A DNA stretch of 64,000 nucleotides, from positions 192,001-256,000 of the forward strand of contig CBDBFU010000015.1 in NCBI GenBank assembly GCA_965205025.1, read 5' to 3'. Shown piece after piece: positions 9,028 to 64,000 of this stretch. The notes below the pieces were generated by a model that searched no databases, was not told where the DNA came from, and saw nothing but the letters and a program-made list of their open reading frames with translations. This stretch comes from Candidatus Poribacteria bacterium. Its GTDB lineage: Bacteria; Poribacteria; WGA-4E; WGA-3G. How positions within the stretch are numbered: the stretch's first letter is position 1; the number at the start of each line of letters is the position of its first letter. The position numbers and the translations under genes are program-made.

Positions 9028-9042
9028 AATTCACCTCTTGAC

Positions 9043-15987: not shown

Positions 15988-16046
15988 ATCCTATAGCATT
16001 TGATAAATTGTAAAAAAACTGGATTTGCCAATACAACAGGTGTTGA

Positions 16047-27765: not shown

Positions 27766-28242
27766 TTAAGAACCAGGTTTAAAGAATGTAACTAAACATC
27801 CTCCAAGGGCTGCCAACAGAATACCGAGAACAAATTGCCACCGAATAGCGCCCCACCCACCTTCTGGTGGATGTGATAGTGTGGCTACAATTGCATTTAC
27901 AATTGGTGCCCCCGCAAATACGATGGACATCACAACTGCAGGCTTCCCTTTAGCACCAAATGCGAGTAATACACCGAAAGCACCAACCGCACCAACGACT
28001 CCTGCGATAAATGACCATGTAACACCTTTTCCAGAAAATGACCACGTTGCTCCGCTCTGCCACAACATAATTAATGATCCTACTACGGCTACTAATAAAT
28101 AGGCAAGACCAACGAAAAGGAAGGCTTTGAATCCCGCACCTGTTTCTTCACCCATTGATATTTTACCTTTATGTAGAAAAACGCCATAAAGTCCCCATGA
28201 TGCAACTGTCATGATTACAAAAATTAACCATGTTCTTGTCAT
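27766..28242 (-). CDS. Small multi-pass membrane protein (EamA/DMT-like)
   Basis: About five hydrophobic segments; SWGLYG, AGVVGAVGAFG, VMSIVFAGAP. Confidence 0.65.
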   Translation of the reverse strand: MTRTWLIFVIMTVASWGLYGVFLHKGKISMGEETGAGFKAFLFVGLAYLLVAVVGSLIMLWQSGATWSFSGKGVTWSFIAGVVGAVGAFGVLLAFGAKGKPAVVMSIVFAGAPIVNAIVATLSHPPEGGWGAIRWQFVLGILLAALGGCLVTFFKPGS

Positions 28243-28328: not shown

Positions 28329-29618
28329 CTAAATATATTTTTGGAAGACATCCATTAACTGCTGTGCGATGACTCCGTCATTAAACTTTTCATGTACATT
28401 CCTTTTTCCATCAATTCCTAACTGCTTTCTTTTAACAGGATCACGGAAGAGTTGTAGAATACCTTCAGCCAGTGCATCAGAAGAATCAGGTTCGACTAAG
28501 ATTCCTCCATGTGTAGCTTTTATCATCTCAGGAAACGATCCGTGCTGAGGTTGAACAACTGGCACTCCATTTGCTAGTGCTTCTAAGATAGATAAACCTT
28601 TTGATTCACGATATACAGTTGGTACAGAGAAAATATGCAAACGGTTAAAAAACTCAATCTTTTCTGTTCTATTCACTTCCCCAAAATGCACAAATCTCTC
28701 CCGTAACCCCCAAGAATTTATCTGATTCACTAATTCTTCAAAATAGGGTTCATCTTTTTTTCCCAGATATCCAGCGACATGTAACTCAACTGTATCGGAT
28801 CCAATTTCTTTTGTGAGTGTATAGAATGCATTGACCAAATGGTGTAACCCTTTTTCTGGACAGATACGAGCTAAATATCCGATAACAAGGGGTGGAGGAG
28901 CAGTTTTCTCATTAACCATGCCGTGTCCATCCAAATTCACACCTAAAGGAACAACATCAACCATATTGGTTGGAACTTTTAAGTATTCTTCAGCCATAAA
29001 TTCTGCATAATAGTAGCAGGGTGCAACAAATCCATCTGCATCTTTGGCTCGTTCAGCGAGGATTGCCAACGCCATATCCTTGTAAGGATCAATTAAATCT
29101 CTAAGAAAGATGTCTTCCCCTTGTAGAGCACAGACTACAGGTACATCTAATGCATTCTTAATTTCCCTGGTCATACCTACAAGCATAGAATTGGTCAGAT
29201 AAACGATATCCGGTTTGTCATTTTCTTTGAGCCATTTGACTAATTTATCCAATTCTTTCTTCTGTTTTCCATTTTCTGCTTTGAGCATAGACACCGTCAA
29301 CTTACCTAAGTCTCGTGCATCCGTAGAAGCACTAAACCGTCCTAAGCTGTTTAACAGTGATGGATTGTCAAGAATCCTATCAAATATCCATGGTGTATAA
29401 CGAAAGATGGCTAATTTTTGCTGTAGATATACATTAATTCCTCCATAGAAAATACGATTCATACTCACATTCTCTTCATCTGTTCGAGTTGGAGTATATG
29501 TTGGAATTAATGAAACGTCATGTCCCTGCTTTTTAAGAACATTTGCCACAGTATTGTCATGTATACAAGTACCACAGTACATACCTGCTGCACCTGCGGT
29601 AATATAAGCAACTTTCAT
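28329..29618 (-). CDS. Glycosyltransferase family 4 with N-terminal CxxC
   Basis: GYLARICPEKG, ESKGLSILEALANGVPVV; N-terminal AGAAGMYCGTCIHDN. Confidence 0.85.
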   Translation of the reverse strand: MKVAYITAGAAGMYCGTCIHDNTVANVLKKQGHDVSLIPTYTPTRTDEENVSMNRIFYGGINVYLQQKLAIFRYTPWIFDRILDNPSLLNSLGRFSASTDARDLGKLTVSMLKAENGKQKKELDKLVKWLKENDKPDIVYLTNSMLVGMTREIKNALDVPVVCALQGEDIFLRDLIDPYKDMALAILAERAKDADGFVAPCYYYAEFMAEEYLKVPTNMVDVVPLGVNLDGHGMVNEKTAPPPLVIGYLARICPEKGLHHLVNAFYTLTKEIGSDTVELHVAGYLGKKDEPYFEELVNQINSWGLRERFVHFGEVNRTEKIEFFNRLHIFSVPTVYRESKGLSILEALANGVPVVQPQHGSFPEMIKATHGGILVEPDSSDALAEGILQLFRDPVKRKQLGIDGKRNVHEKFNDGVIAQQLMDVFQKYI

Positions 29619-29655: not shown

Positions 29656-31134
29656 CTATGTATCGTCAACCTTTCCCATAGTAATAAATTTGTTTACTGT
29701 CTCTAAAGATGGAGGTTTCGTTATTACAGACACGAAGACCAAAGTCAGAGAAGATACTACTATGATTAGGGCTACAGGCATGATACCAGTTCCTCCGATT
29801 GTGTATCCGGGTGTCTTCCAGAAACTAAGAAAAAAATAAAGCCATAGTAAAATTACAACTATAATTGCAGTATAAACACCCGATTTTGTACTACGTTTCC
29901 AAAATAATGCAGCGACTACAATTGGAAATAAGCCAGAAAAACCGGTAAAGGACCAGATAGCCAGTTTAAATATACTTGGTGTAGCTATAAGCGAAATAAT
30001 ATATGTAATGCTAATGATAAATATAACAAATAACCGCCCAAGCCACACCTGCTGATATTCAGACATCTGTTCCTGTCCTTTTGTTCGAAGATAAGGACGG
30101 ACGATGTCGTGGGTAAACATACTACCGAGAGATAGTGATTGTGAATCAAGAGACGACATAATTGCAGCAAAAACACCTGCCGCTAAAAAACCTGATAGTA
30201 TACCTGGAGCATACTGACGAATCATAAGAATCAATACATCGTTAGCTGCAGGTCCCTTTAATCCACCAAAGTCAATATTACCTAAAATACCCAATAGGAC
30301 ACTTGGAATCCATACTATAGCAATACAGATCGGGTATAGGATAATTGGATAACGAAATGTACCAACATTTTTCGCTGTTAAACAATGTGAAAAGATGTGT
30401 GGAAACATGCCAACTGATAACGGGATGCATGTATAGGTTAATAACTCTAAAGGTTTAATATTTCCTTCTTGCATTAATAGGTTGGAATCAATAGTTTTTA
30501 AGGCATTTGAAAACCCACCCATGCCTTTCATAATGACGATAAACGTTAATGCACCGAGTGTCATGAAAACCAGAGTTTGGAATGTGTTTACCCATGCAGT
30601 TCCGCGCATTCCACTATATGTAACATAACAAAGAACGACTGCACATATGAGTAGTCCTCCTAACCATTGCGGTATAGTGTTTTCTGTGATAGTGGATAGA
30701 GTACGTCCACCCCCTACTACTCCAATAAGTAGATAAGGTATTAAAAGCAAGACAAGAACTGTAAACAACAGTAAACCCAATCCGTTTGATTCCCATCTGT
30801 CACGGAAGAATTGTACTTGTGTTATATACCCAAATTGTTTCCCTATTTTCCATAGACGTGTGCCAATAAATAGAAAAACACAAGGCACAATAATAGCGGA
30901 AGATGATGCCATTAACGCGAATACACCGATTCCTCTATGATATGCTTCTCCTGATGCTCCCAATATTGAAAAAGCAGTCATGTTTGTACCAAACAATGAC
31001 ATCAATAACATGAACCAATTTATGTTTCGACTTGCAACAAAATAGTCTTCTCCAGTCTTTCTGAAGAACTTATGGCTTATGATCCCTAAGCTAAGTACTA
31101 AAGCAAGATATATAAATATGATAGCCAGGATCAT
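29656..31134 (-). CDS. Sodium:solute symporter (SSS) family protein
   Basis: EDYFVASR, GMRGTAWVNTFQ, AAIMSSLDSQ; ~13 TM. Confidence 0.9.
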   Translation of the reverse strand: MILAIIFIYLALVLSLGIISHKFFRKTGEDYFVASRNINWFMLLMSLFGTNMTAFSILGASGEAYHRGIGVFALMASSSAIIVPCVFLFIGTRLWKIGKQFGYITQVQFFRDRWESNGLGLLLFTVLVLLLIPYLLIGVVGGGRTLSTITENTIPQWLGGLLICAVVLCYVTYSGMRGTAWVNTFQTLVFMTLGALTFIVIMKGMGGFSNALKTIDSNLLMQEGNIKPLELLTYTCIPLSVGMFPHIFSHCLTAKNVGTFRYPIILYPICIAIVWIPSVLLGILGNIDFGGLKGPAANDVLILMIRQYAPGILSGFLAAGVFAAIMSSLDSQSLSLGSMFTHDIVRPYLRTKGQEQMSEYQQVWLGRLFVIFIISITYIISLIATPSIFKLAIWSFTGFSGLFPIVVAALFWKRSTKSGVYTAIIVVILLWLYFFLSFWKTPGYTIGGTGIMPVALIIVVSSLTLVFVSVITKPPSLETVNKFITMGKVDDT

Positions 31135-31328
31135 TTGTCACTCCAAGCATATTTAACTATAAAAAACATAAGTAAAGATGTACCGAGACAAAACAGTATA
31201 TGGTAAAGTAGACCGACAGGTAATCCTAAGACAATCTGGGGAGACTTCCAGAACCAAAAATCGTTATGAAAAAATAAGAATAGTATTATTAAGCTATATA
31301 GAATCCATTTAAATGTATTCTTCATCAT
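31131..31328 (-). CDS. Small membrane protein accompanying SSS transporters (DUF3311-like)
   Basis: RBS aggagaggag, ATG at 31328; HNDFWFW...LGLPVGLLYH; overlaps the SSS start. Confidence 0.7.
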   Translation of the reverse strand: MMKNTFKWILYSLIILFLFFHNDFWFWKSPQIVLGLPVGLLYHILFCLGTSLLMFFIVKYAWSDK

Positions 31329-33369
31329 ATCTCCTCTCCTTACTTCTATTATAATAAATGATTCCAGCACTTGCAAGTATTGCAATAGCATGAATCCAAA
31401 TTACACTCAATTCTGTCGGTATAAAAAATAGAAATATAGCTGATATCAACAGAATAGCACGTTCCCATAGCGAAAATTTGGTATATACATATCCGGATAT
31501 AGAAGCTGCGAAAATAATTGTTCCCAACAATGTTAATAAGAGATTGATTGACACAACCCATATTTCAGGATTGCCACCATCAGAATTTAACCAAAGTAAT
31601 TCTGGTCGGAGGACAAAAGCATAGGGAAGTGCAAAACCAACGATTGCAAAACGAAAAGCAGCTAAAGCTGTTTTCATAATACCTGCATCCGCAATAGCAG
31701 CAGCAGTGTAGGCAGCTAAAGCAACAGGAGGAGTCACCATTGACATCATACCAAAATAGAATATGAAAAAATGTGCAGCCAAAGGTACGACCCCTAAATC
31801 AACAAGTACAGGACCAAGTAGAATAGCCATCAAGAGGTAACACACAGATGATGGTAAGCCCATACCTAATATAATGGTTGATACCATAAGTAGTAATAAC
31901 GCTAAAATTAGATTGGTTTGAGCTAAAGGGAATATAGCTGCGGGTAATTTTGAACCGACACCCGTTAGTGTGACGACACCTAAGATAATCCCCACACACG
32001 AAGCAGCTGCTATGAGGGATACACCACTATGTGCTGCACCTTCCATACTCTTCAGAATGCCAGTAATTCCGATACGAGTCTGCCTATCAAATAAACTTAA
32101 TATCAAGACAACAAGTAGACTCCAACTAACAGCTCGAAACGGTGTTGAACCTAATAATAGAAATCCAATTAATGTCAGAAAGGCAGCAATGAAAACTATT
32201 CCCTGCATCAACGGTAGTTTTTCAGTCTGTGTTTCAGATTGTATATTTCCGTCTGTTTCATTATCTGCATGTGTCAAATCATTTGGTTGCTTTCGGATCT
32301 GTTTTGCATAGAAATGAACAATTAGTAATAGGGCAGTATAATACAGGATTGCTGGTAATAAGGCAGCCTGAATAATCTGAAGATACGTGACAGAGGGTTC
32401 GACAATTTCTAACATCATATACGCGCCTGCTCCCATAATCGGAGGAACTAAGGCACCACCAGAACTTGCTGCAGCTTCAACCCCTCCAGCTATTGGAGGT
32501 TTAAAACCTACACCCCGCATCAATGGAATTGTGAAAGTACCTGTTGTTGCAGTATTTGCAACTGCTGACCCTGAGAGTGAACCCATCAGACCACTTGCGA
32601 TGACAGCAACTTTTGCCGGACTACCTACACTATCACCAAATATCCTTCTGACAAAGCTTAGGATGTAATTTGTAGCACCTGTGCGTTCCAGAAATGCACC
32701 AAACAGAACAAATAGAAACACATAGGTAAACATCACTCGAAGTGCTATACCGAAAGTTCCAGCATGAAGGAAGGTATGACTGATAATTCGTTGCAGTGAG
32801 AATCCTCGATGCGGAAATAACCAATGTGGCATATACTGTCCAAATCCCGCATAGATGAGGAATACAGAAGAGAGAAGTGCAAGTGTAATCCCAACTGAAC
32901 GACGAGTGGCTTCAAGGATTAATAGAATACCTACGCCACCTACCACAAAGTCAATAGGGTGTTCGTTAGAAACCCTATCCCCAAGGTAAATCCCTTTCAA
33001 CCATAATGATTTGAAAAATGGTTCAGTTTGAATTACTACATACCCGAAACAAACAATTACACATCCTACGAATACATAATCAAGGATTAGAAGTAATGAT
33101 TTATCTTCCAATTTCTTATGTATCGGATATTTCAGAAATACGACGATTAGACCCAACATGGCAAACAGAGCTAAAGCAGATTGAGGTCTCAATATAGGAT
33201 AATTAACTTCGGATAATATGAACAGACTTAGGAGAACTGCTACCGGTAAAATTAAGAGTTTTTTTATCTGTTTCAAGTGTGGAACGAACCTGTGTTTCAA
33301 TGACGAGTTTCGTTGGATTAAGGTATGGATTGGGAATTTTTGAATTACTAAATCCCACTGAGGGTTCAA
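31309..33369 (-). CDS. TRAP transporter fused 4TM/12TM permease (TAXI type)
   Basis: LEATRR, GSPAKVAV, SGSAVAN, EAAASSGGALVPPIMGAGA, GMGLP, TPPVALAAY; exact start uncertain. Confidence 0.9.
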   Translation of the reverse strand: MNPQWDLVIQKFPIHTLIQRNSSLKHRFVPHLKQIKKLLILPVAVLLSLFILSEVNYPILRPQSALALFAMLGLIVVFLKYPIHKKLEDKSLLLILDYVFVGCVIVCFGYVVIQTEPFFKSLWLKGIYLGDRVSNEHPIDFVVGGVGILLILEATRRSVGITLALLSSVFLIYAGFGQYMPHWLFPHRGFSLQRIISHTFLHAGTFGIALRVMFTYVFLFVLFGAFLERTGATNYILSFVRRIFGDSVGSPAKVAVIASGLMGSLSGSAVANTATTGTFTIPLMRGVGFKPPIAGGVEAAASSGGALVPPIMGAGAYMMLEIVEPSVTYLQIIQAALLPAILYYTALLLIVHFYAKQIRKQPNDLTHADNETDGNIQSETQTEKLPLMQGIVFIAAFLTLIGFLLLGSTPFRAVSWSLLVVLILSLFDRQTRIGITGILKSMEGAAHSGVSLIAAASCVGIILGVVTLTGVGSKLPAAIFPLAQTNLILALLLLMVSTIILGMGLPSSVCYLLMAILLGPVLVDLGVVPLAAHFFIFYFGMMSMVTPPVALAAYTAAAIADAGIMKTALAAFRFAIVGFALPYAFVLRPELLWLNSDGGNPEIWVVSINLLLTLLGTIIFAASISGYVYTKFSLWERAILLISAIFLFFIPTELSVIWIHAIAILASAGIIYYNRSKERRYDEEYI

Positions 33370-52386: not shown

Positions 52387-53367
52387 TTATTCCTTCCAAA
52401 TACCAATCTCTTTATAGAAACGTATCGCCCCAGGATGAAAGGGTGTACCCGTATCTTTTATGACATTCTTAGGGTTAATTGCATTACCTGCTTTGTGTGC
52501 TTTTACAACTTCAGCACGATTGTTATATAGTGTTTTTGTAAATTCATATACGGTGTTTTCATCAACCGACTCAGCAGTAATTAGATGCATGGATCCCACA
52601 TTCATAGTTTCAAATGGTTCGGTTAACACCTTCTCATAAGCAGTAGCAGGAATAGTGATCGACGAAAAGAAAGGATACTTTTTAACAAGAGCTTCCTTGG
52701 CCATTTTGTCAAAAGGAATAAACATAATATCTTGTGATGCGGAAGCTTGCTTCACGGCAGGTGTTGGCACTGCTCCACCAATAAAAGCAGCTGTAGCTGC
52801 CCCGTCTGCTAATAAATTCACGGCAGCGCTATAAGTATCATTGAGAGGAGTGAAATCATCATAGGTAACACCATGTTCCTCTAATACTGGTCTCAAGAAA
52901 TATTCAAATCCAGCACCGGCTGGACCAACAACGACTCGTTTTCCTTTTAGATCCGGGATTGAATTAATCTCTGAAGATTTCTTTGCTACAAACAGAGCCA
53001 CATTTGGAGCGAGTGTCATGACTGAACGGATTGGATGTTTCGTTCCCCATGCACCTTCACCACGTACAGCAAAATATGAGATTGCAGCATTTGCAAGTGC
53101 AAATTCTATTCTTCTATCATCCTCTACCAAAAGACGGATGTTCTCTTGAGTTCCTTTTGTTCCTTGGGCGGTAACTTCCCAGTTCATTTCTGTTGAATTA
53201 CGATTTACAACATCTGCAATCGCCCCACCAACAGCATTAAACGCTCCCCCTATAGGGGCAGTACCAATACTGATAAACTTCATCTTAGATGTATTATCAC
53301 ATCCAATATATATCAACAATGCAAGAATAACAGGTATTATGATTGTATATTTCCTGATAGTTTTCAT
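52387..53367 (-). CDS. TAXI-family TRAP solute receptor (lipoprotein)
   Basis: Lipobox IGC; IGTAPIGG, TKGTQENI, DLKGKRVVVG, PFHPGAIRFYKE. Confidence 0.9.
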   Translation of the reverse strand: MKTIRKYTIIIPVILALLIYIGCDNTSKMKFISIGTAPIGGAFNAVGGAIADVVNRNSTEMNWEVTAQGTKGTQENIRLLVEDDRRIEFALANAAISYFAVRGEGAWGTKHPIRSVMTLAPNVALFVAKKSSEINSIPDLKGKRVVVGPAGAGFEYFLRPVLEEHGVTYDDFTPLNDTYSAAVNLLADGAATAAFIGGAVPTPAVKQASASQDIMFIPFDKMAKEALVKKYPFFSSITIPATAYEKVLTEPFETMNVGSMHLITAESVDENTVYEFTKTLYNNRAEVVKAHKAGNAINPKNVIKDTGTPFHPGAIRFYKEIGIWKE

Positions 53368-53448
53368 GTTTTCTCCATTATTTTCATATCTTATTTTAAT
53401 AGAAATATTTGATAGATTTCTATTTATACATTTCTATTTACACCCATC

Positions 53449-54738
53449 TTATTTATCAAAGCTTAATGGAACTTCTGGTGGGAAATAACACATCTTGGAC
53501 ATATCTGGAAAGATATGAGTTACATCTCTTCTATAAACATCCCCACTTAGTATGTCAACGATTCCTCCAAGATGCTCTGGGTATTCTGACAGAAAACGAG
53601 CAAAGCTGAATTCCTTTGTATAGAAGGCGTATACTAATTTCCTAAATGCTTCCATACCATTTACAAAAGTCTGTCCGAAACTCCCCAACTGATTTCCAGA
53701 AAAATCATTCTCTCTAAATGCCTCAACAATTACATCTGCAGCCATTTCACCGGATTTAAGTGCTAAGAATAAACCTGTCGAATATACTGGATCCAAGAAA
53801 CCAAATGCATCTCCGATAAGCAACCAATTCTGTCCTGAAATTCGACTCGCTCTATACGAGAAGTCTTTGGTTGTTTGAACAGGAAACAGTTGTTTAGCAC
53901 CGTCCAATCGTTCCTTTAATGGTTGGCACTTCACCAATTCTTCCTCGAAGATCTTTTGTGTGTCCAGTTTTCCATCTGAATCTCTTCGGTTTTGTAGAAG
54001 ATAATCTAATTCTCCTACAACCCCTACACTTGTCCGGTTGTATGGTAGTGGAATAGACCAAAACCATGAATCCTTTTCCTCTGTATGCAGTATAAGGGTT
54101 GCCCCTTCGTCAATTCCTGGATCTCGGTATCCACCTTCAAAATGTGTGAAAAGAGATGCTTTTTTCAGGTTAGGATCCACAGTATTTAGATTTAATTGTC
54201 TACCAATAAGAGATCGCTGTCCTGTAGAATCAACAATTACTGTGCCATGAATCGTCTGTTGTTGTGTTTCCTGAATGTTACCATTGACTGTCGTCTGTGT
54301 ATTAACACCAATTGCTTTATCTCCATCAAAAAGCACTTTTCTTACACTTACACCCCTTCGTACCTGAACACCTTTTTCAACGGCGTTATTTAATAACATC
54401 TGGTCGAATTCACTCCGCAAGACCTGCCATGTCACGGAACTCTCATGTGGATTTGTTTCAAAGAAGTAAAATGGATTCGTAGCTTTACCAGTCCGTGTGA
54501 AAAACTGAACACTATATTTCTGGGGAAAATGGCTCGCTCTTAGTTTCTCAAGCATTCCAAGACGTTTGAATGTCCAGTATGTTGAAGGAATCAGGGATTC
54601 ACCAATTTTAAACGATGGTTCAGATTCACGTTCCAAGAGCAGCACACGATATCCTTGTTGTGCTATAAGGGTTGCGGCAGTACTACCTGCGGGACCTCCA
54701 CCGATAATTATTGTATCATATGTTGAGTGCTGATTCAT
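53449..54738 (-). CDS. Flavin-dependent halogenase-like FAD oxidoreductase
   Basis: IIGGGPAG, FKIGES, FPQK (putative catalytic Lys), WFWSIP (WxWxIP), GDAFGFLDPVYSTG. Confidence 0.78.
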   Translation of the reverse strand: MNQHSTYDTIIIGGGPAGSTAATLIAQQGYRVLLLERESEPSFKIGESLIPSTYWTFKRLGMLEKLRASHFPQKYSVQFFTRTGKATNPFYFFETNPHESSVTWQVLRSEFDQMLLNNAVEKGVQVRRGVSVRKVLFDGDKAIGVNTQTTVNGNIQETQQQTIHGTVIVDSTGQRSLIGRQLNLNTVDPNLKKASLFTHFEGGYRDPGIDEGATLILHTEEKDSWFWSIPLPYNRTSVGVVGELDYLLQNRRDSDGKLDTQKIFEEELVKCQPLKERLDGAKQLFPVQTTKDFSYRASRISGQNWLLIGDAFGFLDPVYSTGLFLALKSGEMAADVIVEAFRENDFSGNQLGSFGQTFVNGMEAFRKLVYAFYTKEFSFARFLSEYPEHLGGIVDILSGDVYRRDVTHIFPDMSKMCYFPPEVPLSFDK

Positions 54739-54772
54739 GGTAATTGTTGTAGTTACTATTAAATGTTATATT

Positions 54773-56017
54773 TTATATTCGTTCATCAGTAAATCGTCTT
54801 GATTTCAATTCATATCGTGGTAAAGTACCATTTGGTACTGTTTTAACAATTGTTCTTAATCCTAATTCATCTCGGATGGCTGCAGTGACCTTGGATATTG
54901 TTTCATCTGAGTTTGGATTAATCGTCTCAATTTGGATTTCAAGCTCATCAAATGTATCTCCAGAATAAGCACGAACAGCAAACTCACGAACATCTTGTAC
55001 CTTTAAGATGATATTTTCAATTGTTGCTGGATATACATTTAATCCTCGTATAATTATTGCGTTATCTAACCTTCCCACAACACCACCATCAAGGATACGA
55101 TGTTCACTTCCACAAGAACACTGTACTGATTTTAGTCTGACAAAATCTCCTGTCCTGTACCGTATTACTGGCATCCCAACCCGTCCTAAATTAGTAATGA
55201 CTAACTCTCCCTCATCTGCATGCTTGCCAGAATCTGGATCTATTACCTCACAAATAAATTCGTCCTCATTGAGATGCACTCCGTTTTGTGTTCTACACAT
55301 TACACCCCAGGCACCAACTTCGGTTGCACCAACATGGTCGTAAGCCTTTGCTCCCCATCCGTCTTCAATTCGTTGTTTTGTAGATTGTAGACTTGCCCCC
55401 GGTTCACCTGCATGGATCGTAACCCTTACCTTAGATTTAGTACTTAAATCCACACCTTCTTGTTTTGCCACTTCTGCCAGTCGTAAAGCATAGGTAGGTG
55501 TACATATGACCACTGTCACATCATTCGTAAGGATAGCACGTATACGTTGATCAGATGTCATCCCTCCATTTGCTATGGTGAATGTTCCAAGTTGTTGAGC
55601 GCCATGATATGCGCTCCAAAAACCAATAAAGGGTCCAAATGAGAAAGCAATCATTAACCTGTCAGAGGAGGTCACCCCTGCAGCATTATAAATATCACGC
55701 CAACATTTACCCCACCAATCCCAAGATTCTCTTGTATCTAACCAACGGATTGGTGAACCTGTTGTACCAGAGGTCTGATGTATGCAGGTATACTGTTCTT
55801 GTGGATAGGTTAAATTCGTACCGTATGGTGGATGGGAAACCTGATCTGTACTAAGTTCATCCTTCGTCGTAAATGGAAGATTCTGATAATCTGAAAGCGT
55901 TTGAATTTCATCAGGATTGGAAAAGCCAGAATCACCTAACTTCTTTTTATAGAAGTCATTTGACTTACAAACCGGTATTAACATTTCTCTCAACCGGTTT
56001 AATTGTATATCTATCAT
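54773..56017 (-). CDS. Phenylacetate-CoA ligase (PaaK)-like adenylate-forming enzyme
   Basis: LPFTTKDEL, TSGTTG, AGEPG, GATE, RYRTGD, GRLD. Confidence 0.85.
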   Translation of the reverse strand: MIDIQLNRLREMLIPVCKSNDFYKKKLGDSGFSNPDEIQTLSDYQNLPFTTKDELSTDQVSHPPYGTNLTYPQEQYTCIHQTSGTTGSPIRWLDTRESWDWWGKCWRDIYNAAGVTSSDRLMIAFSFGPFIGFWSAYHGAQQLGTFTIANGGMTSDQRIRAILTNDVTVVICTPTYALRLAEVAKQEGVDLSTKSKVRVTIHAGEPGASLQSTKQRIEDGWGAKAYDHVGATEVGAWGVMCRTQNGVHLNEDEFICEVIDPDSGKHADEGELVITNLGRVGMPVIRYRTGDFVRLKSVQCSCGSEHRILDGGVVGRLDNAIIIRGLNVYPATIENIILKVQDVREFAVRAYSGDTFDELEIQIETINPNSDETISKVTAAIRDELGLRTIVKTVPNGTLPRYELKSRRFTDERI

Positions 56018-56059
56018 ATATCTATCAGATCCTTGCTTAGGATTCCAACCTGGTAAACA

Positions 56060-57400
56060 TTATGTATACCGTGTATTCTGGTATTCTGGAGCATAGAACG
56101 CTGGAAGAAGACCATCAACCTGGAGTAAACCCCGTTGGGTTAGTTGGATTTCATCTTGATCTGATTGAATTCGTAACATACCTTCGTTCTGTAGTTTCTC
56201 AAATTCCTCACTATAGAGTGTCAAGATATCCTCATCGAACTTAGATTTGAAATAGGATGGATTAATCTTACCAAGTTTAAGTTGTAAAATCATTTCTCGT
56301 GTGAGTTTTTCATCCTCTGTAGGTTTAAAAGCGCGATAGATGGGTAGTTCACCTTCTTCAAGAGTATTGAGATAGTCCCCCCAAGATGGTGCATTTTGAA
56401 AATGAATTCCGCTCAGATGTGAAAAAGATGCTACCCCCGTACCGATCATATCACTTCCTTGCCATACTGCATCACGATATACAAACTTACAAGGTTTGTC
56501 TTTTTTCAAAACCGTATAGGCACTTGATTGTTCATATCCGGCTTGAGCGAATTGCTCAAAAGCATATTGGTGCCATTCCCTTTTTAGTTTCCAATCAGCA
56601 ACAGGTAATGCATCTCCCCCGAGGATATCTTTTGAATAAACAGTATTAAAAGGCAGCTCAAGTTGATAAACAGTAATACTATCAGGATCAAGTTCTATAG
56701 TCTTTTGAACAGTATCCCGCCAACTTTCCCACGTTTCACCAATCATACCAGATATAAGGTCAATGTTAACCTGATCAAAGTCTAATTCCTTTATCCATGG
56801 ATCAATTCTGTACACCTCTTTTGAGAGATGTGCACGACCGTTTTCTTCGAGGATGTCGTCATTCAAGTTCTCAACACCGAGACTTAAACGGGTAACACCT
56901 ATGCCTTTTATAGCTTCTAATTTTTTTTGTGTCAACGTACCCGGTTCACATTCGAATGCAACTTCTTCGGCATCATCCCAAGGAAACACTTTCTTGACTC
57001 TTTCAACGAGTGTGTTTAGATGTTTTACACTGATGTATGATGGAGTACCACCACCGAAGTATACAAATCTCAATGGACGGTTGACTAATGCAGGTTGTCT
57101 GCCATATAGTTCGATTTCTTCAGCAAGAGCATTGAGATATGTATCTATTTCAGAGCTGTTTTTATCCGTATAAACTCGAAAATAACAGAATTTACAACGT
57201 TTACGGCAGAAAGGAATGTGTAGATATAGACCTAACGTTGCATCGTCCGATGGTTCTTCGTTTAATGCATTATATACATCCGGAACTGCTGATTCATTCC
57301 ATACAGAATAGGGAGGATAATTAGAAACAAAAACGCTCCCTACGGATGTCTTTTCAGAATCTATTCCTGCTGTCGCTGGTTCCGGCTTTGTTTGGTTCAT
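56060..57400 (-). CDS. HemN-like (class C) radical SAM enzyme
   Basis: LYLHIPFCRKRCKFC, YFGGGTPS, RLSLGV, NIDLISG; divergent N-terminus FVSNYPPYS. Confidence 0.85.
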   Translation of the reverse strand: MNQTKPEPATAGIDSEKTSVGSVFVSNYPPYSVWNESAVPDVYNALNEEPSDDATLGLYLHIPFCRKRCKFCYFRVYTDKNSSEIDTYLNALAEEIELYGRQPALVNRPLRFVYFGGGTPSYISVKHLNTLVERVKKVFPWDDAEEVAFECEPGTLTQKKLEAIKGIGVTRLSLGVENLNDDILEENGRAHLSKEVYRIDPWIKELDFDQVNIDLISGMIGETWESWRDTVQKTIELDPDSITVYQLELPFNTVYSKDILGGDALPVADWKLKREWHQYAFEQFAQAGYEQSSAYTVLKKDKPCKFVYRDAVWQGSDMIGTGVASFSHLSGIHFQNAPSWGDYLNTLEEGELPIYRAFKPTEDEKLTREMILQLKLGKINPSYFKSKFDEDILTLYSEEFEKLQNEGMLRIQSDQDEIQLTQRGLLQVDGLLPAFYAPEYQNTRYT

Positions 57401-57475
57401 TTCTATATTCCTTATAGTAAAATCAATTATACATACTATATATATGTATAGACTTAAATTATAAATCTATTTTAA

Positions 57476-58684
57476 TTATTTCTTTCCAAAACAGAAAAGT
57501 ATTCCATCCTCATTCCCAATGTAAATTCTACCATCAGACACACTCGGTGATGCGATAATAGATGAACCGGTTTCATATTCCCAAACAGACTCTCCTGAAG
57601 ATAAATCTAATGCAATAAATAATCCGCGAGTTGTACCGACAAATACGCGTTTTCCTACAACAATAGGAGAAGATTCAATACGCGATTTTGCTGTATAGGT
57701 CCAGATAGGATCACCCGTATTATGTGATAGTGCATGTACCATCTTATCACGTCCACCGATAATAACTTCATCTCCTGTGAGGGCAGCAGAAGCGATAAAA
57801 GGATATTTAAGATCTGGGTGTTGATATCGCCAGGTAATATCTCCTGCATCCAAAGACACACTTAGGATTTCACTGCCATAAGTACCACAGAAGACATGAT
57901 TATCTAATATTGCTGGACTTGCCCCCACATAAGTTCCAAGATTTACCATGTGTACTTGTGTTCCATCCGTGACATTAATTACACGAAGATAACCATCACA
58001 TCCTGTTGCAATTGCATAATTTTCTATAGTGGATGCATCATCAGTTTTATGGAGCCAAACACTGGGTGTTGCATGAACATATCCTTCAGTTTCAAATTTC
58101 CATATTAGATTACCATTATTGATGTCTAAACAGTATAAAAACCCATCATACGAACCGAATAACACCCGGTTATCTATGAAATTTGCTGAAGATACAATCT
58201 CACCCTCGGTGGTATACATCCATTTCTTTTCATGCGTGTTAATATCCACTGCATGAAATATACCTGTGTCATCTCCAAAGTAAATGACACCATCAGAAAT
58301 TGATGGGGATGACTTTATTGGTGCCTTGGCATTATAGTTCCATTTACTCTCTCCTGTCTGAGCATTTAGTGCATATAAATACCCATCTAATGCCCCAACA
58401 TATACAGTACCTTCATAGATAGTTGCAGTAGACTCTATCATGTCATCTACTTTAAATGTCCATAATAAATCAAGCTTATCGGGGAGTTGTGCCTTAACCA
58501 CTCCTGTAAGCTGCTGATTACCTCTGAAACTAACCCAATTACCAAAAGAAATCTGTATGTTTATAAAAAATAAGACCAAAATATAAGATAAGATCACTAT
58601 GATATATCGTATGATTTCTTTTAAATTGGTGAGTTTGATAGGTAAAAACTCAAAATACTTTTTCATATAATCTCTCAAAATCAT
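57476..58684 (-). CDS. PQQ-type (BamB-like) beta-propeller protein, probably exported
   Basis: Hydrophobic N-terminus, WVSFRGN, repeated SSP...VYxG..DG..YAL...G...W units; true start probably downstream. Confidence 0.8.
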   Translation of the reverse strand: MILRDYMKKYFEFLPIKLTNLKEIIRYIIVILSYILVLFFINIQISFGNWVSFRGNQQLTGVVKAQLPDKLDLLWTFKVDDMIESTATIYEGTVYVGALDGYLYALNAQTGESKWNYNAKAPIKSSPSISDGVIYFGDDTGIFHAVDINTHEKKWMYTTEGEIVSSANFIDNRVLFGSYDGFLYCLDINNGNLIWKFETEGYVHATPSVWLHKTDDASTIENYAIATGCDGYLRVINVTDGTQVHMVNLGTYVGASPAILDNHVFCGTYGSEILSVSLDAGDITWRYQHPDLKYPFIASAALTGDEVIIGGRDKMVHALSHNTGDPIWTYTAKSRIESSPIVVGKRVFVGTTRGLFIALDLSSGESVWEYETGSSIIASPSVSDGRIYIGNEDGILFCFGKK

Positions 58685-59771
58685 CTATTCCCACAGGCCG
58701 TGGGTTAAACTGCGCTGTCCATTGAACCGATGCCTCCTTTGCTAAGTTAGCAAGGTCTGTTGACCTGATGGGATATTGGACAGAACACTCTTGTAGTGTG
58801 TTCGGTAAATCACTACATTCAATTAAAGACTCAATTCTATCAGCTAAATTCCCTTTAGAATAAAGTTCTTGATAGAAACCTCCAACGATTTGTTCATTAT
58901 ATCGTATAACATGCGGTAGCATTAGACTGACCGCGATACCATGTGTAATTCCATATCTTGCTGTTAATGGATTTGCACATGCATGTGCGGCACCAAGCAT
59001 AGAATTCTCTATTGCCAATCCAGCAAGATATGCACCAAATAACATCTTTCCACGCGCGTCAAGATGTTCTTCATCAATAGCTATTTGGAAATTAGATTCT
59101 AACATTTTCCACGCCTGTATTGAAAACATCTGGGAAAGCGGGTTACGTCTTGTTGAAACAAAACTTTCAACTGCGTGTGCTATGGCATCTATACCTGTGA
59201 TCGCTGCAACCAATTTAGGTAAGGTATCAGTCACAGTTGGATCTAAAATGACAGTGTCAAATTTTGCTTTTTTGTCTCCACAAGCCATTTTAATATGTGT
59301 ATCATCTTGTGCAATCAATGCATAAGATTGCGCCTCACTTCCAGTACCAATTGTTGTCGGTATACCTATTGAGGGAAGCATAGGTCTTGTAGCTTTGTTA
59401 GTTCCCCAATAGTCCTCCATTTCACCTCCATTTGTTAGAATGAAATTCGTTCCTTTTGCACAATCCATTGCACTTCCACCCCCGAGTCCAATAATTAGAT
59501 CAATTGGGTTGTTTTTTTGTGCAAATTGGACTGCCTTATAAACATGTTTTGTTGTTGGGTTCGGATCAACATCCGTGAAAACGGAACAGTGTATATTCTC
59601 GTTATTTAGTGCCGAATATGCTCTCTTCAGAATACCCGCTTCCTTGATCCCAGTATCAGTAATGATGAGCACACGACTACCACCCAATGTTATAGTGGCT
59701 TTTGCGAGTTTCTCAATACTGTTATCTCCAAATAAAACACGTTGTGCTAAATTAGAATCGAAGGATACCAT
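58650..59771 (-). CDS. Iron-containing alcohol dehydrogenase
   Basis: GLGGGSAMDCAK, IPTTIGTGSE, DAIAHAVES, AHACANP, ITHG. Confidence 0.9.
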   Translation of the reverse strand: MVSFDSNLAQRVLFGDNSIEKLAKATITLGGSRVLIITDTGIKEAGILKRAYSALNNENIHCSVFTDVDPNPTTKHVYKAVQFAQKNNPIDLIIGLGGGSAMDCAKGTNFILTNGGEMEDYWGTNKATRPMLPSIGIPTTIGTGSEAQSYALIAQDDTHIKMACGDKKAKFDTVILDPTVTDTLPKLVAAITGIDAIAHAVESFVSTRRNPLSQMFSIQAWKMLESNFQIAIDEEHLDARGKMLFGAYLAGLAIENSMLGAAHACANPLTARYGITHGIAVSLMLPHVIRYNEQIVGGFYQELYSKGNLADRIESLIECSDLPNTLQECSVQYPIRSTDLANLAKEASVQWTAQFNPRPVGIDDFERLYEKVF

Positions 59772-59810
59772 GTAAACTCTTTGAATAATTCCAAGATTTC
59801 AGTATTTTGT

Positions 59811-61307
59811 TCAGTTTGTTGTAGGATATTCAGTAAGATGTGCCTGTGGTGTCCCATGCAGATAATCTCCATCACATGCATTGAATAACCAACCACTCAA
59901 CCGTTCTACAAGATCAGGATAGTCTGATGACAGATCATGTTCCTCCCGATAATCTTCCTTGAGATTATATAACTGGAAGTTTTTGTTCTTGTTAATATAT
60001 CGACATTTCCATCCATCAGATGTTACCAAGGCAGGACCGAGTCGAGAAGCATAGACAACCCATTCCCTACTTTGTTGGTCTGTCCGTTCATACAGCGTCG
60101 GTAAGAATGAGACACCATCCTTTCCATTTGGTGAATTCACATTAATTAGGTCAGCAAGGGTTGGCATGACATCGTAGTTTGTTATCATCTGATTAGATTC
60201 TGTATCTTCTGGAACGTATCCCGGATATCGTACAATGTATGGAATACGTGTCCCACCTTCCCAACTTGAGAATTTCAGACCACCCATACCATCATTTCCG
60301 TTGAACACATCACCACCTGTCTCTGAGTAGAATTTAGTTGTAATTTCATCGAATTGTTCGTTATCCAAGTTCTTATTTCGTCCAGTAGTTCGTCCTTCCT
60401 GTTTAGCATATACTTCATGTCCATTATCTGAACAGAAGATAATCATAGTGCGTTCATCAATCCCAAGTCGTTCAAGTTCATCCAAGATAATACCTACGGT
60501 TTCATCCAGTTTCAATATCATAGATGCGTATTCTTTTTCATAGGTTGTCAATTCTGATGATTGTTTAACTGCAGGATGTATTTCAGGTATTGCAATTGGT
60601 CCGTGTGGTAGTTGGGAAGGATGATAGAGAAAGAAGGGTTTATCCTTGTTTTTTCGCAGGAATTGAATAATCTTTTCGTTGAAAATATCCTGAGAGTATA
60701 CTGCTTTGCCTTCTTGATTTCTTCGTTGTTCTAAATTTTCTTCGGATTCTATATTTTGGTGTTTTCCACAGTCTGGATGTGTGTTTCCTTTAATCTCTGT
60801 AATATCCCCATTATCAAACAAGAAGGGAGGATAAAATCCGTGACACCGTTGATGGTCATAGTATCCGTAGTGATACTGCCACCCATGTCTTCGTATACGA
60901 TCTCCTGTAGTTGCAAACCCCCATTCCAGTTTTCCAATCTGTCCTGTCGTATATCCTGCTTCCTCAGGTATTTGTGCTAAGAAGACATCATCAGAAGTGG
61001 CTTGAAGTCCAGTTGTATGGATGAGTTCGGTAATCTCACTATATTCCATTTCACCTGAACTGATATTATTATATATTCCACCTTTTGTATATGTCCATGT
61101 ACCTTGATGGCAATCGTGTAGGCCTGTTAGCATACTTGCCCGGGATGGAGCACAAAAAGCACATCCGTATGCATGGTTAAATCGCATACCTTCATTGGCA
61201 AGACGGTCAATACTTGGTGTCTCAAAGTGCCGTTGTCCATAGCAACTTAGCATACCACGACCAAGATCGTCTGCATAAATGAAAATGATATTTGGATTAT
61301 TGGTCAT
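59811..61307 (-). CDS. Arylsulfatase (Cys-type)
   Basis: PNIIFIYADDLG, CAPSRASMLTG (CxPxR), SDNG, WEGGTRIP. Confidence 0.9.
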   Translation of the reverse strand: MTNNPNIIFIYADDLGRGMLSCYGQRHFETPSIDRLANEGMRFNHAYGCAFCAPSRASMLTGLHDCHQGTWTYTKGGIYNNISSGEMEYSEITELIHTTGLQATSDDVFLAQIPEEAGYTTGQIGKLEWGFATTGDRIRRHGWQYHYGYYDHQRCHGFYPPFLFDNGDITEIKGNTHPDCGKHQNIESEENLEQRRNQEGKAVYSQDIFNEKIIQFLRKNKDKPFFLYHPSQLPHGPIAIPEIHPAVKQSSELTTYEKEYASMILKLDETVGIILDELERLGIDERTMIIFCSDNGHEVYAKQEGRTTGRNKNLDNEQFDEITTKFYSETGGDVFNGNDGMGGLKFSSWEGGTRIPYIVRYPGYVPEDTESNQMITNYDVMPTLADLINVNSPNGKDGVSFLPTLYERTDQQSREWVVYASRLGPALVTSDGWKCRYINKNKNFQLYNLKEDYREEHDLSSDYPDLVERLSGWLFNACDGDYLHGTPQAHLTEYPTTN

Positions 61308-61391
61308 AACAAAGAAACCTTATGAATAAGAATTGTCCAAACTATAGTTATTTATGAAAAGCGCGATTAAATTGTTGTTTAATTAAAATCC

Positions 61392-62846
61392 CTATAATTT
61401 ATAGATACATTTAGGTGATTTGTCTTGTTGAAAAGCACGTTGTCGATATAAATGTTCAAACAAATTCCCTTCGTGAGGACTATCCCATGAAATCTGATTT
61501 GTTGGAATTGGACCTATATTCAATCTGTCAATTAATGGTGTCTCTAACAGTTCTTGTGTTAGTTTTGAATCATCAGTAATTACTGTTGCTACCAACGTTT
61601 CAGCAATTGAATCCACAAGTTGTGATGGTGAAACTTCAGTTACACTAACAAATGGGAATGGAAATTCAATATTTGCTAATGGATGTTCAGAATCTTCACA
61701 CCATATAACAGTTGGTCTGAGGAAAGTACATCCATCTAATTCAACAACCCGATCACCGGAAGTTAACTCTATCGCGCCGGGTTGTTTTAGATGTCGGTCA
61801 ATAAGTGATGAAATACCGTGTGCAGCTTTTGGGTTTGCCCATGCAGCAATACCCGCTTCAGGATGATCGAGTGGTTTCGGTTGCATTTGAGATAGCCGTT
61901 CTGTAATGGCTTCAGCGGTATTTCTACCCTGTGCTGTTACCCATACACCAGATGCATTAATGCAGGATCTGCCACCGTTTTTAGATACCGATTCAACAAT
62001 GAGATCAAGATAGTCTTCCATTTCTGACTTTATATCTTGATGAATGACAATTTTACTTCTTCCAGGTCCATGTATTTCGACACGAGGATCATTTACCCAA
62101 GGTGCAACAGTAGACCCACCGCCAAATAACATTGCCCTACCACATCTAACAAGGATTTCATTTGCCCCAGAATAATCTGTTGGATAAAAGCTAAATGCTT
62201 CCATAGGTGCACCAGCTTCTATAAAGGCTTGTGCAATACGATACGGTGTCCATGGTTCTTCACGGCCAGGTTTCAATACAAGTGGAACTTTCAACACAAA
62301 AGCAGGAATCCAGAGTGAATGGACACCTGGTGAATTGCTGGGTAAAATTGCTCCAAGGGAGTTTGTCTCACACACATAACTAAGGATTCGTCCATTTTGT
62401 TCTCCCCAACCATCATCAAGTATTTCCTGATTTAATCCGCGAGTTAATCCATCAAATACTTCATCTATGTTTTCTAAGACACCGCGAATTTTCTCCATAT
62501 TCTGTTGACAAAGTGCCTCTGGCATACCCGTTGTTCCCGATACCTGTTTGATATAACCATCAGGGGATTGAGTATTATCATCAAGTGGTAAATTGGAGGA
62601 TGTGAAATGACGTGCAGCGTCTTTGCAGATAGACACCAATTCCTTCACAGAATATTGTTTTAGGGTTTGCTGATGAATGGGTATATCGATTAAATCCTTC
62701 GCGATTAGACCGCGATTCGCTTGACTAACATCAACTAACGGTTCGCCAGTTTTGATATGAGAAACCGTTACCATATTTAGACTTCTGTATGTCCGTCCTG
62801 CGCGTAATATTGGGATATGTTGCATCGATTTGGACTCCAGGTTCAA
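61392..62846 (-). CDS. Aldehyde dehydrogenase-fold protein, GriD/EhpG-like
   Basis: LPSNSPGVH, LKPGREEPWTP, HGPGRSK, GGRSCIN (catalytic Cys), EFPFP. Confidence 0.7.
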   Translation of the reverse strand: MNLESKSMQHIPILRAGRTYRSLNMVTVSHIKTGEPLVDVSQANRGLIAKDLIDIPIHQQTLKQYSVKELVSICKDAARHFTSSNLPLDDNTQSPDGYIKQVSGTTGMPEALCQQNMEKIRGVLENIDEVFDGLTRGLNQEILDDGWGEQNGRILSYVCETNSLGAILPSNSPGVHSLWIPAFVLKVPLVLKPGREEPWTPYRIAQAFIEAGAPMEAFSFYPTDYSGANEILVRCGRAMLFGGGSTVAPWVNDPRVEIHGPGRSKIVIHQDIKSEMEDYLDLIVESVSKNGGRSCINASGVWVTAQGRNTAEAITERLSQMQPKPLDHPEAGIAAWANPKAAHGISSLIDRHLKQPGAIELTSGDRVVELDGCTFLRPTVIWCEDSEHPLANIEFPFPFVSVTEVSPSQLVDSIAETLVATVITDDSKLTQELLETPLIDRLNIGPIPTNQISWDSPHEGNLFEHLYRQRAFQQDKSPKCIYKL

Positions 62847-62855: not shown

Positions 62856-63560
62856 TTATGATTGACTTATCTGTGCAACCCATCCAGAGGATGCATCACA
62901 ATAGAGGAAATCTTCACCGTAAATAGATAGTCCGTGTGGTTCAGGATATTCTTCTGCCACCTCAATCTTATTAAGGATTTTCCCATCATTCAGATCAAGT
63001 TTGACGATTACCCGTTCAGAAGTATGGACAACCCAGAGTCCATCTTCTACGCGAACTGTTCCATGTGCTCTACCGTAAGGTAATGGTAAGGTGTGTTGAA
63101 TTGACCAGTCAGAAATTTTCACCTTATGGATTTCTTGGTTTTTTAGTGTTTGTACCCAGAGGTGTCCTTCATCGAAATTGTCATATTCGACTCCGTGTGT
63201 GCCACCCCCTTCTGGTACAGGAAAACGCTCCAATGTTTCACCCGTATTTGGATCTACTTGGAAAATCTCACCGTCCCCTGGTTTTGCATCAGTTTCTCGG
63301 ATTTCTCGCCACCGATCTCCTGAACCGTTGGCAGCTAACCAGAGTGTCCCATCACCATAAGCCATGCCGCTTGTATTTGAGGATTCGCTTGGAATATCTC
63401 TTATATGTTTTGGGACATGGTATTCGTGATCACATGTGATTTCTACTAACATGACTCTATCTGTGATTTGGTCGACTAACCATAAACCTTCAGTAGTGAC
63501 CTGTAACCCATTTGGTACAGCATAAGGTGAGCGAAAAACTTTCTCTATTTTTATTTCCAT
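62856..63560 (-). CDS. Beta-propeller protein of unknown function (glutamine cyclotransferase/YncE-like)
   Basis: RBS aagga, ATG at 63560; PNGL, SGMAYG..LW, HGVEY, PHGL repeats. Confidence 0.6.
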   Translation of the reverse strand: MEIKIEKVFRSPYAVPNGLQVTTEGLWLVDQITDRVMLVEITCDHEYHVPKHIRDIPSESSNTSGMAYGDGTLWLAANGSGDRWREIRETDAKPGDGEIFQVDPNTGETLERFPVPEGGGTHGVEYDNFDEGHLWVQTLKNQEIHKVKISDWSIQHTLPLPYGRAHGTVRVEDGLWVVHTSERVIVKLDLNDGKILNKIEVAEEYPEPHGLSIYGEDFLYCDASSGWVAQISQS

Positions 63561-63779
63561 GTTAAAATAATTCCTTTTCGTATAACTTCGGTATTCCTTC
63601 AAGGATAACGTCTCATCTAATAATGAGTAAATGAGAAATGGGTATGCCCGTATTATACTCCTTCCGACGCGAATCACCACCGAATCGTGTGTGGCATTTA
63701 TCAGGCTTGAGTTCTGTCTGAATCAGGGATTAGACAGATTACACATAGATTAAGGGCATATTTTAACAACTATCCATAG

Positions 63780-63851
63780 ACATTCCGTCCCTACGGGACT
63801 CGGTTAGTTAGATAATCCATTTTCTATAGACATTTCGTCCCTATGGGACTC
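63780..63851. repeat. REP doublet, same family as 27360-27433
   Basis: acattccgtccctacgggactc and acatttcgtccctatgggactc, 50-bp period. Confidence 0.65.
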
Positions 63852-63972
63852 AAACCAAAGAGTGATATTCAAAATTGATGTCCCTCCAAGCAATACCATT
63901 CTTTTCGATATGTGCAGTATATGTCTCATCATATACTGTATCTTCTATTTCAATAGTATGAATATTGTCCAT
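63850..63972 (-). pseudogene. Possible HicB-like antitoxin N-terminus truncated by a MITE end
   Basis: RBS aggag; MDNIHTIEIEDTVYDETYTAHIEKNGIAWR runs into gacatcaattttg (MITE end) and then stops. Confidence 0.4.
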
Positions 63973-64000
63973 AGTAATCTCCTGGGAACATGGATTTTAG

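Follow-up and report, generated by a model that had tools for sequence, protein, structure and literature searches.

Gene content and extent of the locus

We analysed a window of 64,000 nucleotides (contig C15:192001-256000) from the genome of a Candidatus Poribacteria bacterium (5.66 Mb, 95% complete). Eight open reading frames (ORFs) lie head to tail on its minus strand at 52387-62846, separated by spacers of 81, 34, 42, 75, -35 (an overlap), 39 and 84 nucleotides; they encode a flavin-dependent halogenase-like enzyme together with a PaaK-like ligase, a radical S-adenosylmethionine (SAM) protein, a protein of the aldehyde dehydrogenase (ALDH) fold and the further members listed in Table 1. 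An earlier note on this DNA, made from the letters alone, had described eight co-oriented genes with small gaps, and ORF calls and matches to Pfam and NCBIfam agree with it on the families named. All of the motifs that it quoted are present in the translations (GGGPAG, FPQK and WFWSIP in the flavin adenine dinucleotide (FAD) enzyme; KPGREEPWTP, HGPGRSK and SCIN in the ALDH-fold protein). Its statement that the cluster has no polyketide synthase or non-ribosomal peptide synthetase core also stands: scans of the 38 other ORFs of the window and of 15 kb upstream revealed no such domain.

The grouping of the eight genes is more than chance, because the same order recurs in other poribacterial families and in other phyla. 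They are the central piece of a larger conserved unit, which in this genome is split over three places. The bound originally drawn at 62846 was too narrow: the unit runs past it into a ninth co-oriented gene, followed by four conserved genes further upstream, outside the window. Other pieces are displaced. The sole fused TRAP permease of the window lies 19 kb from the TAXI gene, whereas in another poribacterium the genes for the TRAP permease, the sodium:solute symporter (SSF), the GT4 glycosyltransferase and the membrane protein directly follow TAXI, and the permease stands directly after TAXI in three genomes (G027, G031 and G025) and in planctomycete loci. The 158-residue membrane protein is 70% identical (E 1e-79) to the product of the gene after GT4 in a Latescibacterota operon. 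Contig C20 carries the 4HBT thioesterase (61% identity), the ABC ATPase (60%) and the double-FtsX permease.

Table 1 Features of the conserved unit and its displaced pieces. Positions are those of the window unless prefixed.
Feature	Position	Strand	Evidence and remarks
TAXI-family TRAP solute-binding lipoprotein	52387..53367	-	TIGR02122 246 bits (cut-off 84); lipobox IGC
Flavin-dependent halogenase-like enzyme (predicted)	53449..54738	-	Trp_halogenase/FAD_binding_3; GGGPAG, K74 in FPQK, WFWSIP
PaaK-like aryl-acid ligase (ANL)	54773..56017	-	AMP-binding_C_2 57.6 bits
HemN-like class C radical SAM paralogue	56060..57400	-	Radical_SAM (PF04055) 74.7 bits; HemN_C (PF06969) 25.2 bits (cut-off 24); CRKRCKFC
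Membrane-anchored PQQ_2/ACSF4-type beta-propeller	57476..58684	-	PF13570 228 bits (cut-off 133); N-terminal anchor
Iron-type alcohol dehydrogenase (Fe-ADH)	58650..59771	-	Fe-ADH 154 bits and ADH_Fe_C 110 bits
Cytoplasmic Cys-type sulfatase, accessory insert	59811..61307	-	Sulfatase 155 bits; CAPSR; without signal peptide
EhpG/GriD-type reductase subunit, ALDH fold (predicted)	61392..62846	-	Aldedh 58.7 bits; likely true start 62825
Small cytoplasmic beta-propeller (SMP-30/lactonase or glutaminyl-cyclase look-alike)	62856..63680	-	Pfam matches sub-threshold only
Intergenic repeat, small-propeller gene to EhpF-like gene	63765..63879	.	65 blastn matches genome-wide
EhpF/GriC-type adenylating subunit (predicted), last bases in window	63997..64000	-	Whole gene L009:997-2070, 357 residues
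Three exported proteins (two signal-peptide PQQ_2 propellers and a lipoprotein)	L009:2263-6059		After EhpF-like gene, beyond window; signal peptides, lipobox
Fused TRAP permease, likely TAXI partner	31309..33369	-	TIGR02123 531 bits (cut-off 321)
Sodium:solute symporter (SSF)	29656..31134	-	SSF 137 bits
GT4 glycosyltransferase	28329..29618	-	Glycos_transf_1 104 bits
158-residue polytopic membrane protein after GT4	27766..28242	-	No family match

Conservation within Poribacteria

The halogenase-like gene is present in 39 of 41 relatives and in 140 of the 151 genomes sampled across the phylum, mostly in single copy, and is absent from the 6 genomes of families f6-f9. We anchored 60 poribacterial loci of about 20 kb each on this gene; absences from this set may partly reflect genes lying beyond the 20 kb. 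The PaaK-like ligase adjoins the halogenase in 49 of the 60 loci and TAXI does so in 46; the radical SAM gene is likewise found in 46, the ALDH gene in 15 and the EhpF-like gene in 12. The recurrent order is TAXI, halogenase, PaaK, radical SAM, propeller, Fe-ADH, (sulfatase), ALDH, small propeller, EhpF-like, propeller, lipoprotein and propeller. It recurs in full in families f1, f2 and f3 and more loosely in a fourth family.

The genes are also inherited together where their order is lost. Single EhpF-like and radical SAM orthologues are retained elsewhere in 5 of 5 genomes with broken synteny. Among the 11 genomes without a halogenase match, 8 (f4/g4, f5/g17 and f6-f9) also have no EhpF-like and radical SAM genes, and the other 3 are fragmented assemblies that retain at least the EhpF-like gene. 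The enzyme families, the conserved order and the co-inheritance are direct observations.

The sulfatase, which the earlier note counted as a cluster member, is an accessory insert, because a creatininase fills its slot in one genome (G025). It occurs in 9 of the 60 poribacterial loci, all of them in the genus of the window. The genome has 22 FGE-sulfatase family matches, 7 of them clustered on contig C12, and the window holds another sulfatase gene (44419-45867).

Distribution in other phyla

A search of 1.84 billion representative sequences returned 751 relatives at E 1e-30 or better. The nearest named clusters outside the Poribacteria are from Holophagales/Acidobacteriota (51% identity) and Planctomycetaceae (42%). 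One genome per GTDB species was scanned with a 5-row alignment (a 14-row multi-phylum alignment was too diverse for a locus scan), and 561 loci encode a relative. Gene counts for other genomes refer to the best 80 of these 561 loci, and a second count refers to the 45 of the 80 with at least 8 kb on either side. The best 80 are labelled Planctomycetota (about 50), Acidobacteriota (12), Latescibacterota (8), Gemmatimonadota (2), and Omnitrophota, Armatimonadetes and 'Deltaproteobacteria' (1 each), with 3 labelled Poribacteria and 3 unnamed.

Colinear blocks are found in Planctomycetota, Latescibacterota, Acidobacteriota and Omnitrophota, with shorter runs in Gemmatimonadota. The most frequent companion is the radical SAM gene, in 41 of the 80 loci (29 of the 45 well-flanked loci), followed by the propeller in 29 (25), Fe-ADH in 25 (21), GT4 in 22 (17), SSF in 22 (13), where it follows the halogenase, the PaaK-like ligase in 18 (13) and the ALDH gene in 12 (10). 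Elsewhere the conserved set has extra members: a TonB receptor, the 4HBT thioesterase, the ABC ATPase and the giant double-FtsX permease. Records carrying the labels of at least six phyla contain this operon, which is common to many lineages and maintained by vertical descent. The source labels in some record titles, as deposited, include groundwater, SPRUCE, Tara Red Sea and ALOHA and suggest that its habitats extend beyond sponges. The earlier suggestion of a probable marine or sponge-associated lineage holds, the organism belonging to the sponge-associated Poribacteria, and close homologues of the ALDH-fold protein are so named by their sources; the idea that the cluster is special to such a lineage does not hold.

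Predicted activities of the enzymes

The ALDH-fold protein is, by its predicted activity, a reductase subunit of the EhpG/GriD type. It matches Pantoea EhpG at 122 bits (E 2e-34, 26% identity), compared with 43 bits for the best solved ALDH, in line with the likeness to EhpG and GriD suggested in the earlier note. The two proteins have in common the GPGRSK motif, a P..EP.T stretch and the catalytic Cys; C295, HGPGxSK and KPGxxEPWTP are invariant in 16 ALDH sequences from several phyla. GriC/GriD and EhpF/EhpG reduce aryl carboxylates through an acyl-adenylate, and GriC/GriD are described as adenylating 3-amino-4-hydroxybenzoic acid (3,4-AHBA) and then reducing it to the aldehyde (PMC10179220).

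The predicted adenylating partner is an EhpF homologue encoded outside the range first reported, and not the PaaK-like ligase that had been cast in this role. This protein of 357 residues aligns over its full length with EhpF in the Protein Data Bank (PDB; 3l2k/3hgu, 153 bits, E 9e-44) and shares 31% identity with the EhpF encoded by a Pantoea agglomerans plasmid, where the EhpG gene is adjacent. Identity among EhpF-like proteins is 67-97% across phyla. Among the 60 poribacterial loci, 12 have the gene colinear with the ALDH gene, as do 3 loci of other phyla; in this genome the small-propeller gene and the repeat separate the two. We also considered LuxC and LuxE as identities for the ALDH-fold protein and the ligase; neither family gave a match, and EhpG and EhpF fit instead.

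The FAD enzyme is most likely a flavin-dependent halogenase-like protein of the phenol/pyrrole clade, as predicted from scores and motifs. The 14 best PDB sequences score 58-202 bits and comprise 13 named halogenases and an unnamed flavoprotein (3nix); the halogenases include 8zop (202 bits), Mpy16, PltA, CndH, ChlB4, Bmp2, CmlS, RadH, a tetracycline halogenase and PltM. The ten best solved flavin-dependent halogenases score 126-202 bits and geranylgeranyl reductases 46 bits or less, and the CmlS family model scores 176 bits against 130 bits for the geranylgeranyl reductase model. Judged by score and not by a tree, the enzyme therefore belongs with the halogenases and not with geranylgeranyl reductases, as had been proposed. 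GGGPAG, the FAD-binding GxGxxG, occupies residues 13-18; K74 aligns with the Lys of 8zop and 5buk, and WFWSIP with the WxWxIP of halogenases. Strict WxWxIP and the Lys are kept in all 141 orthologues collected. This is the sole PF04820 gene of the genome. A literature search on 8ZOP returned nothing useful.

The ligase is assigned to the PaaK subfamily and not to the PaaK equivalog: it matches PDB 4r1l at 201 bits and falls below both equivalog cut-offs (TIGR02155, 216.7 versus 646; NF041878, 234.5 versus 700). Links to flexirubin (FlxY, 171 bits) and bagremycin (BagE, 119 bits) were rejected, both matches being far under their cut-offs. Fe-ADH is below all NCBIfam equivalog cut-offs.

The radical SAM protein appears from its scores to be a class C paralogue, in agreement with the earlier note, and not an orthologue of HemN or HemW. 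It is under the curated cut-offs for hemN (200.8 versus 325), HemW (169.6 versus 205.4) and HutW (180 versus 400) and also below that for STM4012; it matches HemN (1olt) at 127 bits and NocN at 99 bits. A separate true HemW is encoded at C2:185303-186385 (328 bits). The operon context across phyla speaks against this protein serving as the HemN of the cell, a role that we rejected, although not fully, because no gene in the genome passes the HemN cut-off.

The anchored propeller (57476-58684) is colinear in other phyla, and the small propeller is colinear in poribacterial loci only; for the latter, look-alikes in an atlas score 0.99, which is a lead. An exported propeller and the lipoprotein appear as one reading frame of 741-791 residues, with a provisional start, at L084:16979-19204 and L165:2165-4540; if real, the fusion suggests that the two proteins work together.

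Possible substrate supply

A conserved protein of about 180 residues is encoded directly upstream of the halogenase in 24 of the 80 loci, mostly from Planctomycetota. Pfam gave no real family in any of the six sequences scanned, one of which had a sub-threshold match to DUF4388. A structural model (mean predicted local distance difference test score, 93.2) has a protein of the DUF98/Rv2949c type as its best fold match (template modelling (TM) score 0.75) and also matches UTRA domains and Escherichia coli chorismate lyase (TM 0.54-0.61). The PaaK-like ligase and this lyase-like gene are rarely found together (ligase only, 17 of the 80 loci; lyase-like only, 23; both, 1; neither, 39) and so look like alternative routes of substrate supply. 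No PF04345 gene was found in the present genome, which has one unlinked Rv2949c-like gene (52.9 bits).

The same arrangement, a stand-alone halogenase-like flavoprotein directly after a chorismate-lyase-like protein, is that of BaaA/BaaB in Planctomycetales strain 10988, a producer of 3,5-dibromo-p-anisic acid, for which conversion of chorismate to 4-hydroxybenzoate and on to 3,5-dibromo-4-hydroxybenzoate has been proposed (10.1101/723874). That 2019 preprint was all that a literature search on BaaB returned. By analogy, the substrate of the present system is most likely 4-hydroxybenzoate or a close analogue.

Proposed function and alternatives

We propose, and give an even chance of being right, that the unit is a conserved system that tailors a small molecule, namely a phenolic aromatic acid, with substrate, order of steps and product inferred. 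The acid would be imported by the TAXI protein and the TRAP permease, perhaps also by SSF, or made from chorismate by the unlinked Rv2949c-like lyase. The PaaK-like ligase would activate it, probably as a coenzyme A thioester, from which the 4HBT thioesterase on contig C20 would free it. The halogenase could place chlorine or bromine ortho to the phenol, and the class C radical SAM enzyme could put a one-carbon unit on the ring. The EhpF-like and EhpG-like pair would then reduce the carboxylate, by way of an acyl-adenylate, to an aldehyde, which Fe-ADH would take on to the benzyl alcohol. GT4 may glycosylate the product, which the ABC/FtsX pump would carry to the envelope, where it would meet the exported propellers. 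In the genus of the window, the inserted cytoplasmic arylsulfatase may release the phenol from an imported aryl sulfate.

Several points weigh against this proposal. It would be unusual for a secondary metabolite to be inherited vertically, and almost universally, across phyla, and the conservation counts overstate independence, since the related genomes are kin. Halogenases of this clade often require carrier-bound substrates, and no carrier protein is present; PaaK-family ligases usually act on arylacetates. The Lys of the FAD enzyme is replaced by Arg or Ala in 2 of the 14 distant representatives in the 14-row alignment. The earlier note saw no flavin reductase in the window, and a PF01613 flavin reductase was not found in the whole 95% complete genome either, other reductase families not having been searched. 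The exported propellers, the importers and the TonB receptor of other phyla are unexplained by a simple scheme of making and exporting a product. As for the substrate, the chorismate-lyase fold is common to UTRA ligand-binding domains, no BaaA-like gene was found in this genome with the query used, the likeness to BaaA/BaaB is one of arrangement and fold, and the BaaA/BaaB route is itself without genetic proof (10.1101/723874).

The importers in the conserved set (TAXI/TRAP and SSF, with the TonB receptor in other phyla) and the inserted sulfatase would also suit uptake of a host- or environment-derived aromatic acid, possibly sulfated or halogenated, for detoxification or salvage with no product exported; aromatic catabolism is also the typical setting of PaaK-like ligases and 4HBT thioesterases. 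We consider this unlikely. Halogenation, glycosylation and a carboxylate reduction that consumes ATP and NAD(P)H are anabolic, genes for ring cleavage and beta-oxidation were not found in the window, and the lyase-fold protein that takes the place of the ligase in planctomycete loci suggests a substrate made inside the cell.

It is quite unlikely, in our judgement, that the halogenase-like flavoprotein, as a distant relative of QhpG and LodB, acts with the radical SAM protein to mature the exported propellers, which resemble those that bind pyrroloquinoline quinone (PQQ), by supplying a cofactor or modified residue in organisms without PQQ synthesis. The enzymes always come linked with three to four propellers, either exported or anchored; in two loci the genes for propeller and lipoprotein appear as a single long frame; and the QhpG and LodB models score 126 and 108 bits on the FAD enzyme. 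However, CmlS (176 bits) and the solved halogenases (up to 202 bits) score higher, the Lys and WxWxIP that are specific to halogenases do not vary, a precursor peptide was not seen, and EhpF/EhpG, Fe-ADH, the ligase and the thioesterase indicate small-molecule chemistry.

A halometabolite cluster specific to a lineage of sponge symbionts, with the PaaK-like ligase and the ALDH-fold protein as its acid reductase, is contradicted on both distribution and partner and is very unlikely: the organism is indeed a poribacterium, and clusters pairing a halogenase with an AMP-binding protein are described as enriched in sponge metagenomes (10.64898/2026.08.03.742642), yet the halogenase spans the phylum, mostly in single copy, the same operon is found in records of other phyla, some labelled groundwater, SPRUCE or Tara Red Sea, and the partner of the ALDH-fold protein is predicted to be the EhpF homologue. 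A chance neighbourhood of unrelated genes has a negligible probability, for although the operon is often broken in Poribacteria and promoter and terminator scans were uninformative (they found fewer sites than in shuffled sequences), gene order is colinear across phyla and the genes are retained together and lost together.

If the tailoring proposal is taken a step further, the product may be a halogenated, ring-modified hydroxybenzyl alcohol, or its glycoside, that serves as a core envelope or periplasmic molecule, for example as a ligand or organic cofactor of the PQQ-like propellers, and is retained by vertical descent in almost all Poribacteria as well as in Planctomycetota, Latescibacterota, Acidobacteriota and Gemmatimonadota. 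We regard this extension as doubtful. If it is true, enzymatic halogenation would belong to the ordinary physiology of several major phyla that have been little studied, and a product that belongs to core physiology, and is not a defence compound, would change how halogenase genes in metagenomes are read. The open questions touched are which organisms are the source of the brominated aromatics in sponges and what role halogenases play in uncultured phyla. Here a single-copy halogenase found in almost every poribacterial genome searched is tied to defined partners and to a plausible substrate, 4-hydroxybenzoate. The gene set is also present in planctomycete genera with cultured members (Gimesia and Fuerstiella), so its function is testable by genetics and mass spectrometry without growing a sponge symbiont.

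Other features of the window and its surroundings

The intergenic repeat at 63765-63879 recurs as copies of about 80-115 nucleotides with a palindromic core and 75-88% identity, sometimes in tandem, and one of its 65 matches is a 25-nucleotide match at 100%; it looks like a repetitive extragenic palindromic (REP)-like element or a miniature inverted-repeat transposable element (MITE). Immediately upstream of the conserved block, three exported Laminin_G_3 paralogues stand in tandem (L009 6327-9559, minus strand). On contig C20, the giant double-FtsX permease is broken into at least three reading frames (L172 (G000:C20) 7147-10790). The SSF symporter was considered as a halide importer and rejected: the nine matches of known structure are to transporters of sugars and choline and do not include the iodide symporter.

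Elsewhere in the window, the signal recognition particle protein Ffh is split into two overlapping ORFs at 40896-42186 (minus strand), one with the SRP54 N and GTPase domains and the other with the M domain. This essential gene carries either a frameshift or an assembly error. A PorX-type response regulator of the type IX secretion system with a PglZ domain is encoded at 47351-48982 (plus strand; 447 bits, cut-off 300), adjoined by DsbD and a TPR protein. Eukaryote-like repeat proteins are encoded at 1306-2490, 6660-8459, 9731-11047 and 15421-17339 (a 599-residue WD40 protein, two ankyrin proteins and two trypsin-TPR fusions), and the ankyrin genes are flanked by two paralogues of about 578 residues (13528-15267 and 17346-19082, minus strand), in each of which an N-terminal Rieske domain is followed by a long stretch of unassigned sequence.

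Comparison with known systems

The CxxxCxxC motif and HemN_C domain of class C enzymes (HemN, HemW, ChuW/HutW and NocN-type methyltransferases) are also present in the radical SAM protein of the window; it differs from HemN, HemW and ChuW/HutW in falling below every curated cut-off, with the true HemW encoded elsewhere. A sponge halogenase clade was reportedly assigned to Poribacteria by Bayer et al. in 2013.

Bmp5, a flavin-dependent brominase likened to the present enzyme by description, also decarboxylates, whereas here the carboxylate would be retained for reduction. In the Bmp5/Bmp6 bromophenol route of marine Pseudoalteromonas, a chorismate lyase supplies 4-hydroxybenzoate to the brominase (10.1101/723874). 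The BaaA/BaaB arrangement differs from that of this genome, where the PaaK-like ligase takes the place of the lyase-like gene, and the preprint on BaaA/BaaB makes no mention of radical SAM, reductase or propeller genes ('radical' has 0 occurrences; 10.1101/723874).

The pairing of adjacent halogenase and ligase genes (53449-56017) places the locus in the 'Halo_AMP' pseudoclass of sponge-symbiont clusters, defined by Trp_halogenase (PF04820) and AMP-binding in one neighbourhood, in which 8% of gene-cluster families are from Poribacteria (10.64898/2026.08.03.742642). This 2026 preprint was the sole relevant paper found in a literature search on halogenases with HemN, phenylacetate-CoA ligase and PQQ. 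It describes frequent PQQ-like domains, radical SAM proteins that group with no characterised protein, ligases resembling BagE/YtkN (PaaK-type) and halogenases resembling Bmp2, and it treats Halo_AMP as sponge-enriched natural-product clusters and not as one multi-phylum operon (10.64898/2026.08.03.742642). The pathway is therefore not undescribed, as the earlier note had it, in its pairing of halogenase and AMP-binding protein; it is so in that the main text of the preprint names no product or reductase pair, with 0 occurrences each of aldehyde, sulfatase, HemN and TAXI.

The closest parallel to the predicted acid-reductase pair is provided by EhpF/EhpG of the D-alanylgriseoluteic acid cluster in Pantoea agglomerans and GriC/GriD of the grixazone cluster in Streptomyces griseus, in both of which a reductase of the ALDH fold that keeps its Cys likewise works with a short adenylating protein of the ANL family. 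The present pair has no genes for phenazine or 3,4-AHBA nearby and differs from both in being far more conserved (67-72% identity across phyla) and in being embedded with a halogenase-like enzyme, a radical SAM protein and exported propellers.

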